Source of the DNA: a virus
Lineage: Duplodnaviria > Heunggongvirae > Uroviricota > Caudoviricetes
Length of the DNA: 14,879 nt
Reading direction: 5' to 3' (one strand)
Virus record (IMG/VR): IMGVR_UViG_2667527789_000019
Shown: in pieces, positions 6,001 through 9,000 of the stretch
Numbering within the stretch: position 1 is the first letter of the stretch
How the letters are laid out: each line of letters opens with the position of its first letter
Position numbers: made by a program

Positions 6001-9000
6001 GGATGAGCAGGTTTGCCCCTGTCAATTATGACCCCGCCAGTCTGCCGATTCCTGAACTGTACGGCTACAGGGAAAGCGACGGGCGTTATGACGAACCTGT
6101 TTTGTTCTACGTGCTGCCGGATCCGTTCGGCTCACATGTGGCGAATGGATTTAACAAGGATGCCGCGGCAAAAGTTCTTCATGAAGCCGGAATGCTGAAA
6201 AGACCATCCAGCGGTCGTGGGTGGCAAATCAGGACACCACGGCTAAAACACCTGAAAGGGGCGCGCCTGAGAGTGTACGGCCTTTTGCTGGCGCAGGACC
6301 ACGACACGGAAAGCGATTAATCTCGCGTATAGGCGATGAAAAAATGTTGTCCCAGTTGTCCCACTACGTATTAATTGATTGATTTTACTAAAAATACAAT
6401 AAAAAAGTGGGACAACATTACAGCATTTTGGGACGACATCGGGGTATTTTGGGACGACATAGCGACATTTTGGGACGACACAACGAGCGTTAATTACCCT
6501 GGCTGGTGACTGGGACAACATAAAACCCCTCATGTTGTCCCAAAATCGGCTAATGTTGTCCCAGTTTTCGGAGTGTATTTTTAATTAAATCAATGGATTA
6601 TGTGTAAGTGGGACAACTGGGACAACTGGGACGACGTGTTTTTGTATATATATAAAAAAATAAATTGAGAGGATGAATTCATGAGTGAAATTACTGTTAA
6701 AAATATCTCACCTGCGGTAGCTGGCTGGTGGGCGAAGTTCAGAGACGACGACGGCACGGAATGGTACAGCCCGATTGCTGCATGGGCGCTTTGTGAGGTT
6801 GATTATTTCGGTGCGGGGAACACCCGCCGCGAAATCTTACCCGTGCTGACCAGTGAGCTTGGTATGGGTTCGCACCCATCCGATGAAGGCTATTGCGCGT
6901 GTCTGTATCTGCCTGATGAAAAGTTCACGCTCTCAGGTGAGCAGGGGTCTTTTGCCTGGTATCCGGTGAACAGCAACAGTAATAACGGCAATTCGGGGGC
7001 TGAATCATGACGGCGAAGCACACAAAAAACCATAATTCCGTGGTGAAGTTCGTATCTGCCCGTGGCAGGCCAACGCTTTTAGTGCCAGGAAAACATCTGC
7101 ATTACTGCGATGAAAATCATATCCCGATCGTGATTGTCTGGAAGCGAACGGTATACGCCGATGTGACATGGCTGTATGACTCGCTGGCGTTGATGCACCG
7201 TGACCTGTTTGAGCGTGAAGAGTTCCGGCTGAATATTGAGGAACGGGCAGAAAAAATCTATGAGCAATATGCAGCAAACAGCAAAAGAGCCGCACGGGCA
7301 ATCACTCACCATTTCATGACGCTGTATGACCTGAAAGCAGAAGATGCAGAAAAAGCGGCATGTGATTTATTCGATATGACAATGGGTATTATCCAGGAGT
7401 ACCGGAACAGGGAGCGCAGACCATGACAGCACAGATTGCAGCTTACGGGCGGCTGGTGGACGACCCGCAGGAAAAACAGACCAGCAAGGGCACACCGATG
7501 ACGCTGGCGCGTATGGCGGTATCTTTGCCATGCAGTCAGGCACAGGACGGACAGGCGACGTTATGGCTATCAGTCCTGGCATTTGGTAAGCAGGCCGACG
7601 CGCTGGCGAGACATGAAAAAGGCGACCTTATCAGCGTGGCGGGTAACATGCAGATCAGTCAGTGGACCGGACAGAACGGAGAAATACGGCAGGGCTGGCA
7701 GGTTATCGCTGACAGCGTAATCAGTGCCCGTTCGGCGCGTCCTGGCGGGAAGCGGGGGCAGCAGGGGAAGGCGACCGAAGCACTGGACAGAGCAAAACGA
7801 CAGACCGGACAGCAGGGAAATCAGCCACCAGCGGGAGGTGATGACCCTTACGGTGATGATATTCCGTTCTGAGCGACAGGAGCACAACATGAACCAGCAG
7901 ACCACACAACAGGACCAGACAGTACGTAAACCATCACGGCGCATACCGTGGCAGCACATGACAAAGCGGCAGCGAAAAAAACCACAGACGGATTAACCGC
8001 CTGGCTGAATACTGGCCCGAGATTTTCAACGTGGAGAATATGAAGCCCCTGAAAACTGGCGTGATCCGTGATGTGCTTAAGGACGCTAAGGAACGGGAAT
8101 TGCCGATTGGTCACGGCGTATTGCGCGGCGCGTTAATATCGTATATCCACACAACCAGATACCTGAATGCTGTTATCGCTGGTGGTGCTCGGTATGACCT
8201 GAACGGGCAGCCTTGCGGCGAAGTCACGGAAGAAGATAAATCAGTCGCCAGTGAACTACTGAAACGGAGACTGGCGCAAATTAAGCAGCAGAACAGCCAG
8301 CAGCAAACAACCGGAGACGATGGTGATGATAGCTGACAGCGTGGCACAGAAACTTGAGGAGCGCGGTTTATGGCGACGTGCGGCGACCCGATGGACTGAG
8401 GTTCTTCTTCATGCAGAAACGGACAGGGAACGCGAGGAAGCTGCCAGACGTCGGGCGATATGTATCATTAAATCCCGTCGTATGCCTGAGCAGTTCGTCA
8501 CCTTTGGCGATGTGAAAAAGGCCGCTGACAGAACGCTGGCAGAGATGGGGATTAATCCACAGGATGAATGGCGAAATTACAGCTTCAGTGATGCAGGCGA
8601 CGATTTAGCGCTACCGTGATACGCATCTCATTGCCGCATTTGCTCAATTATCGCGATTCGCTATAATCACCACCGAAAAGCCGTTGATGGTGTTCTCCTC
8701 GGGCAACTGGAGCCCGACTGAATGAAGCCATTCAACGGTTTTTCGGCACTCATTCCGGTGTATCTGATCCCACACATCGGGATGAGTGAACGACGAAAAC
8801 ATCACGGTGATTTCGTCATGCCGCGATAAGAATGTTCCCCTTTGGGCAACTGGAGCCCTCTGTGCAGAAGGTTATCGCGGTCAGGTTGTGATAAAAACGC
8901 GCCTCTTTGAGCAATTGAAGCTCACTGTAAAGCGGCTTATCACAGCAGGCTGTAGCGGGTGCTCATCTCTGGGCAACTGAAGCCCTCTGTACAGAGGCCC

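Follow-up and report, generated by a model that had tools for sequence, protein, structure and literature searches.

A homopolymer frameshift in a ProQ/FinO-domain gene of a satellite-type island in Escherichia coli

RNA chaperones of the FinO/ProQ family include FinO of F-like plasmids, FopA, ProQ and RocC; FinO carries a basic, disordered N-terminal extension, and plasmid- and phage-borne members of the family often move horizontally into chromosomes (PMC9977716). Here, we analyzed a gene of this family in the Caudoviricetes record IMGVR_UViG_2667527789_000019 (14,879 nucleotides (nt), hereafter the window; all coordinates are window positions). The gene is part of a chromosomal island and is interrupted at a run of seven adenines on the plus strand (A7, 7975–7981), one A more than in every intact homologue examined, where an A6 run forms part of the codons CGA AAA AAC (R29, K30 and N31). 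The A7 run is very probably a fixed inactivating or truncating mutation, and most likely an ordinary homopolymer frameshift that has left the gene as a pseudogene.

When one A is removed from the run, a single open reading frame (ORF) of 148 amino acids (aa) results, and this repaired protein resembles the FinO/ProQ chaperones in its complete PF04352 domain, its predicted fold and its basic, disordered N-terminus. It differs from them in that its gene lies between ssb and perC in a satellite-type island of the chromosome, and not on a plasmid or at the core proQ locus, and in that the gene of the window is frameshifted, so that translation from its own start codon cannot yield the domain. A second group for comparison are the frameshift pseudogenes generated by homopolymer slippage in bacterial mobile elements and prophage remnants. 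With these, the locus shares the one-base insertion in a short A run, the existence of intact orthologues, clonal inheritance and a second slippage-type lesion within the same element. There is no essential difference, the distinguishing marks here being that the allele is very abundant (at least 1000 contigs) and lacks a pseudogene flag in RefSeq; the frameshift itself is an ordinary mutation.

Two further systems have features in common with the locus. In programmed transcriptional slippage, as described for Thermus dnaX (A9), Shigella mxiE (T9) and insertion-sequence elements (A9) (PMC1088944), two ORFs are likewise joined at a homopolymer run and fused by a one-base change in the mRNA. Here, however, the run is only 7 nt long, the homologues are in frame with A6, and we found no evidence of selection for the arrangement. 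Regarding the genetic context, Enterobacter islands that combine integrase, AlpA and primase with Icd, ProQ and PerC have been assigned to the PICI-type satellites (PMC13612085). The island in the window resembles these PICI/P4-like satellites of Enterobacteria in its integrase-AlpA-Icd/Ash-DUF927 module, its ProQ and PerC genes, its tRNA-adjacent position and a 17-nt repeat at its far end; this copy differs in having two frameshifted genes.

The interrupted gene and its intact homologues

The original gene starts at ATG 7889, preceded with an 8-nt spacer by the Shine-Dalgarno sequence AGGAG (7876–7880), and the same arrangement is present in the intact homologues. From this start, an N-terminal fragment of 35 codons is read up to the TAA at 7994–7996 (7889–7996, plus strand; MNQQTTQQDQTVRKPSRRIPWQHMTKRQRKKPQTD). 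Alignment with the intact O157 gene and with four A6 alleles (L005–L008) showed that its residues 1–30 are those of the intact protein, while the last five (KPQTD) are out of frame. The remainder of the gene (7980–8336, plus strand) comprises residues 31–148 and the stop codon and includes the whole FinO/ProQ domain, as supported by PF04352, sequence matches in the PDB and a structural model. It lies in the neighbouring +1 frame, which contains a TGA at 7959–7961, reads NHRRINRLAEYWPEIFNVENMKPLK and ends with the TGA at 8334–8336. Inspection of this frame revealed no ATG, GTG or TTG ahead of GTG 8031, the next possible start being ATG 8040. A preliminary description of the sequence had reported the 35-codon ORF with its good ribosome-binding site, the TGA at 7959, the A7 run and GTG 8031 as first start, and all of these elements were confirmed.

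To place the lesion among related loci, the region 7400–8700 was compared by megablast with 5,426 complete E. coli genomes. Four of them (2015C-3121, FHI_NMBU_11, JNEC-KY174 and CFIAFB20190167) are 100% identical including A7, and approximately 110 further genomes contain copies with 79–96% identity. The homologue of O157:H7 is a single ORF of 138 aa, starting 17 nt past ssb, and the sole gap within the gene relative to the window is A6 in place of A7. As this homologue aligns without any other gap and the exact repaired protein is present in public data, the fusion of both ORFs by deletion of one A, as previously proposed, does not represent a chance reading across the junction. The nearest intact relatives in complete genomes (L003 and L004) are 96.5% identical and encode 148 aa with A6. 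Numerous intact family members of 138–155 aa were found in the protein database, and all intact homologues examined are single ORFs starting from the ATG equivalent to 7889 and containing A6. The preliminary description had named a start of all intact homologues at the equivalent of 8031, without the upstream helix, as an observation that would speak against an interrupted gene; the homologues begin at the equivalent of 7889 instead and include this helix. An alignment of 22 sequences showed no variation at T25, R27, Q28, K30, R37, W42, P43 and F46 and almost none at N31. Within the phage collection, no close homologue was found, the only matches being to Sodalis phiSG1 and a Shewanella phage with 35–46% identity.

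Homopolymers are error-prone on some sequencing platforms, and a sequencing or assembly indel was among the explanations initially offered for the interruption. Such an artefact in the reference is, however, close to inconceivable. The four identical complete genomes were sequenced independently, and an exact-sequence look-up placed the 98-aa product predicted from ATG 8040 on at least 1000 contigs in NCBI and Logan assemblies (the index lists 2036 blocks), while the 101-aa version starting at GTG 8031 is present on 149 contigs. Together, these matches demonstrate that A7 is not an assembly error. In addition, the lesion is tied to one near-clonal island haplotype, as described below.

Some database entries at first resembled independent frameshifts of the same gene. 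Short proteins beginning with the sequence MNRLAEYW (P0068, P0079, P0081, P0083 and P0126) were rejected as such, because the underlying DNA of L019 and L020 contains A6 and an intact ORF. Likewise, the annotation of a hypothetical protein next to a ProQ/FinO protein in H37 and H38, considered as a recurrent frameshift at the tract, turned out to be a start-site or annotation artefact. In strains SCU-171 and JNEC-KY176 (L019 2952–3468 and L020 2543–3468), an intact ProQ/FinO ORF of 155 aa starts at ATG 3001 and contains A6, but PGAP splits it into a 121-aa protein from a non-canonical codon and an overlapping 59-aa hypothetical protein; these start-site calls give rise to misleading 'short' family members in protein databases. 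The ssb gene of L020 is also flagged by PGAP, with an internal stop.

Two other proteins have a different structure. P0118 carries a DUF4222-like N-terminus in front of the last 50 residues of the FinO-domain protein, pointing to a deletion from primase to ssb, and the N-terminus of P0119 resembles an off-frame translation of the FinO domain, suggesting a frameshift elsewhere in the gene. Both proteins suggest that the gene may decay by several routes in different islands.

Origin and stability of the A7 tract

Next, we compared ten diverse loci, fetched on the basis of the 98-aa product, with the window over the shared island core (4617–12495). They differ from it by only 3–9 single-nucleotide polymorphisms (SNPs), and two SNPs are private to the window. 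This low divergence across ten loci indicates one origin of A7, and at sequence level the A7 haplotype is near-clonal. The frameshifted length is kept in 10/10 loci. Nine carry A7, and in L015 (7925–7935 of that locus) a C-to-A change just after the tract, at window position 7982, produces A8 with the total length and the frame unchanged, so that this locus is still out of frame.

The exact repaired protein (P0122) was found on approximately 11 contigs, all of them in non-A7 backgrounds with diverged flanks. In three of the A6 loci (L005, L006 and L008), the segment 7873–8619 spanning the gene and perC differs from the window by one A and is otherwise base-identical; in L007, perC contains one additional difference. 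In contrast to this identity, ssb differs from the window at 13–28 positions (up to 6%) in L005–L007, the loci in which it was covered. The downstream region differs at 11–30 positions in all four loci (L005–L008), and the neighbouring genes differ as well. The divergence of ssb and of the downstream DNA marks the A6 copies as other mosaic backgrounds and not as revertants of the A7 island. The chromosomal right flank was uninformative for separating host lineages, since the ETT2-side flank is 99.8–99.9% identical in A7 and A6 loci.

A homopolymer lesion at which a one-base change toggles the frame, in a gene that exists in otherwise identical form as A6 and A7, raises the question of a phase-variable contingency switch, in which frequent changes of tract length would switch expression of the FinO-domain protein in a population between ON and OFF. 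This explanation had been put forward in the preliminary description, but the population data make it very improbable. A6 and A7 are each bound to distinct island backgrounds, with ssb 13–28 SNPs apart where it could be compared, and none of the approximately 11 contigs encoding the repaired protein has the A7 background. Within that background, no frame-restoring length variant was observed: all ten loci are out of frame, with no pair of ON and OFF states. The same constancy was seen on the A6 side. When the abundant O157-type allele, artificially changed to A7, was used as query against the complete genomes, it matched 85 of them at 99.4% and none at 100%; hence, 85/85 O157-type genomes have A6, and none has A7. 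Changes in homopolymer length are nevertheless detectable in these data, as L016 has A7 in place of the intergenic A8 at 12178 (a real or technical variation in homopolymer length among near-identical islands), which contrasts with the invariant length at 7975–7981. Furthermore, seven bases are short for a contingency tract. Altogether, the distribution of the alleles fits a single fixed mutation and not a hypermutable switch, as far as can be read from sequence comparison.

The four interpretations initially proposed for the interruption were an indel of technical origin, a recently inactivated gene, a phase-variable switch and expression by slippage. Only the recently inactivated gene is supported, by the identity of 7873–8619 to A6 alleles encoding the intact protein, bar one A, and by the single origin. 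The change from A6 to A7 is a genuine, fixed +1 insertion of the replication-slippage kind near the 5' end of the accessory ProQ/FinO-domain gene; it arose once on an otherwise intact allele and has since been inherited unchanged. It splits the gene into an ORF for a basic N-terminal peptide of 35 aa and an out-of-frame FinO domain. From the latter, the only canonical restarts (GTG 8031 and ATG 8040) could yield products of 98–101 aa. Apart from its origin, the pair of naturally occurring A6 and A7 alleles, which are identical otherwise, offers a ready isogenic pair for addressing the role of the island FinO-domain protein.

Consequences for the FinO domain and its expression

The repaired protein matches the Pfam family PF04352 (ProQ/FinO) with residues 31–136, covering profile positions 4–108 of 109 (84.7 bits; cut-off 27), so that the domain begins right at the tract. 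Sequence matches in the PDB include ProQ (9e-14), FinO and RocC. An AlphaFold2 model of the repaired protein, built from the 22-sequence alignment (mean pLDDT 79), comprises a disordered N-terminus, helix α1 (26–41), helices 58–68, 75–86 and 89–97, a β-hairpin with strands 100–102 and 108–111, and a long C-terminal helix (114–141). A Foldseek search against the PDB recovered RocC (7rgt, E = 1.3e-7) with a target-normalised TM-score of 0.81 (up to 0.84 for other 7rgt chains); FinO (1dvo) and NMB1681 were matched as well. The tract (K30/N31) is located within the predicted helix α1.

A complete FinO domain could not be expressed from the locus as it stands by canonical initiation, as no canonical in-frame start precedes GTG 8031. 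Restart at residue 48 (GTG 8031, 101 aa) or residue 51 (ATG 8040, 98 aa) removes α1 and the invariant residues R37, W42, P43 and F46, which are probably required for the structure. Since a restart product would lack both the helix and the four invariant residues, the gene is most likely a pseudogene. As is typical of frameshift pseudogenes, intact single-ORF orthologues exist, the lesion is the sole difference from the intact allele and is real, and conserved residues are removed. From the position of the lesion in α1, the missing invariant residues and the poor restart signal, we infer that function has been lost.

Some observations weigh against this interpretation. The truncated ORF (8040–8336, plus strand) has a weak GGAG with a close spacing of 3 nt upstream of its start and could be translated, and its 98-aa part shows no further decay. 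The latter is uninformative, because the whole core has accumulated only 3–9 SNPs in 7.9 kb. Moreover, the A7 allele is far more common (at least 1000 contigs) than the A6 allele of identical sequence (approximately 11 contigs), and a beneficial or tolerated alteration would give the same pattern of abundance as neutral decay.

One possible explanation along these lines is a truncated but functional protein. An α1-less FinO domain made from ATG 8040, perhaps alongside the basic 35-aa peptide, might keep an RNA-binding activity or have a changed one, and ongoing translation through the region might keep the overlapping perC expressed. The GGAG 3 nt before ATG 8040, the presence of the same ATG in the intact allele, the very high abundance of the allele and the overlap of the end of the ORF with the start of perC are all compatible with this proposal. 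The 98-aa piece also still matches PF04352 with 67 bits (cut-off 27), but only over profile positions 26–108 of 109. Against it stand the loss of helix α1 and of R37, W42, P43 and F46, the short Shine-Dalgarno spacing, and the fact that no intact family member begins at this position, the shorter calls being start-site artefacts. In addition, the island contains a second frameshift, which is suggestive of decay. Overall, we consider a functional truncated protein unlikely. With the pseudogene as the preferred interpretation, the 98-aa entry WP_231199986.1, to which RefSeq/PGAP gives the name 'ProQ/FINO family protein', corresponds to the end of a frameshifted gene in well over 1000 E. coli assemblies. 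A pseudogene flag would be appropriate for it, and analyses of the FinO-domain family should leave it out.

Expression of some full-length protein by recoding would turn the A7 allele into a low-dosage allele. This could be achieved either by slippage of RNA polymerase or by a +1 slip of tRNA-Lys on AAA_AAA_C. A +1 shift at the first lysine codon would restore full pairing (AAA to AAA) and continue in the FinO frame from AAC, the loss of one A in the mRNA would give the same fused frame, and homopolymer runs are a known substrate of transcriptional slippage (PMC1088944). However, E. coli RNA polymerase requires at least 7 T for slippage and more for A runs (PMC6260861), and counter-selection of slippage-prone runs typically becomes apparent at a length of 9 nt (PMC1088944); A7 is below these published thresholds. 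The site is not conserved either, as the shift is restricted to one near-clonal haplotype and the other alleles are in frame with A6. Regarding stimulatory elements, the RNA surrounding and following the tract is unstructured (z = +0.59), reading of the site revealed neither a Shine-Dalgarno-like element immediately upstream nor a stop or rare codon, and Rfam gave 0 matches in the window. Consequently, neither stimulators, nor a run of at least 8–9 nt, nor a conserved arrangement was found, and the slippage expression suggested in the preliminary description has no positive support. Recoding is therefore distinctly improbable. A trace of full-length protein may be rescued in this way, and nothing at the locus points to programmed recoding. 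The heptamer A_AAA_AAA was also considered as a −1 slippery site, but a shift here leads into the third frame, with a 51-aa product lacking the domain, and not into the FinO frame.

A more general proposal is that the A7 allele is alive and has been selected, and is not neutral. In this case, polymerase or tRNA-Lys slippage would provide a small, tuned dose of the full-length protein, or the split products would be used as such. The RNA-based control of the satellite would then be altered. We regard this as rather far-fetched compared to simple inactivation of the gene.

Genomic context of the gene in the island

The gene is flanked upstream by ssb (7423–7872, plus strand), encoding a single-stranded DNA-binding protein (annotation and Pfam), and downstream by a gene for a regulator of the PerC family (8326–8619, plus strand). 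The start of perC overlaps the end of the FinO-domain ORF by 11 nt when counted from ATG 8326, or by 17 nt from ATG 8320. Given this overlap, perC may be translationally coupled to the FinO-domain ORF. The locus thereby points to a conserved, uncharacterised ssb – proQ/finO – perC module in tRNA-Gly-integrated islands of pathogenic E. coli.

The order of genes in the island is integrase, AlpA, Ash/Icd-like, DUF4222, DUF927 primase, two small ORFs, SSB, ProQ/FinO, PerC and a Q antiterminator. An annotated tRNA-Gly gene lies immediately upstream of the integrase gene, directly beside the island. At the far end, next to the ETT2 type III secretion region, we found the 17-nt repeat TTCCCTTCGCCGCTCCA (12479–12495), which looks like the 3' end of tRNA-Gly (NZ_CP027340.1). 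As context for the frameshifted gene, the island thus combines the features of a satellite, namely integrase, AlpA, a primase/replication module, tRNA-adjacent integration and a flanking repeat, with the domains assigned by Pfam on identical loci.

The second frameshifted gene of the island is the DUF4222 gene (3890–4185), located upstream of the DUF927 primase. It carries a 4-bp deletion at approximately 4110–4113, where one AGCC unit of GGTA-AGCC-AGCC-AGC is gone relative to L003–L007. The deletion is present in every A7 locus covering this region and in no A6 locus, and PGAP flags the gene as a 'frameshifted' pseudogene in NZ_CP027340.1. This second, linked frameshift suggests that the island may be decaying by losing accessory genes.

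The identity of the proQ/finO-perC segment, except for one A, amid diverged ssb and downstream DNA argues for recombinational mosaicism among the islands. The A7 core was found joined to at least four types of integrase and left arm, with integrases of 404, 406, 413 and 417 aa.

The minus strand can form a terminator-like hairpin, CAGGCGG-TTAAT-CCGTCTG (8003 to 7985; −12.9 kcal/mol, z = −2.4), with the A7 complement TGGTTTTTTT as its T-tail. We considered whether this site (7975–8003, minus strand) terminates an antisense RNA and rejected it as a conserved feature. O157-type and L019-type alleles do not preserve the stem, the minus strand has no promoter-like site downstream, and the scan gave 2 terminator-like sites of this kind, fewer than the 3.9 in shuffled sequences.

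A second element begins right after the repeat (12496–14879) and opens with an ORF of 532 aa containing an integrase domain (12630–14228). Among the fetched loci, it is common only to L012, whereas the others run into ETT2 or other DNA. This arrangement looks like a tandem insertion at the same attachment site.

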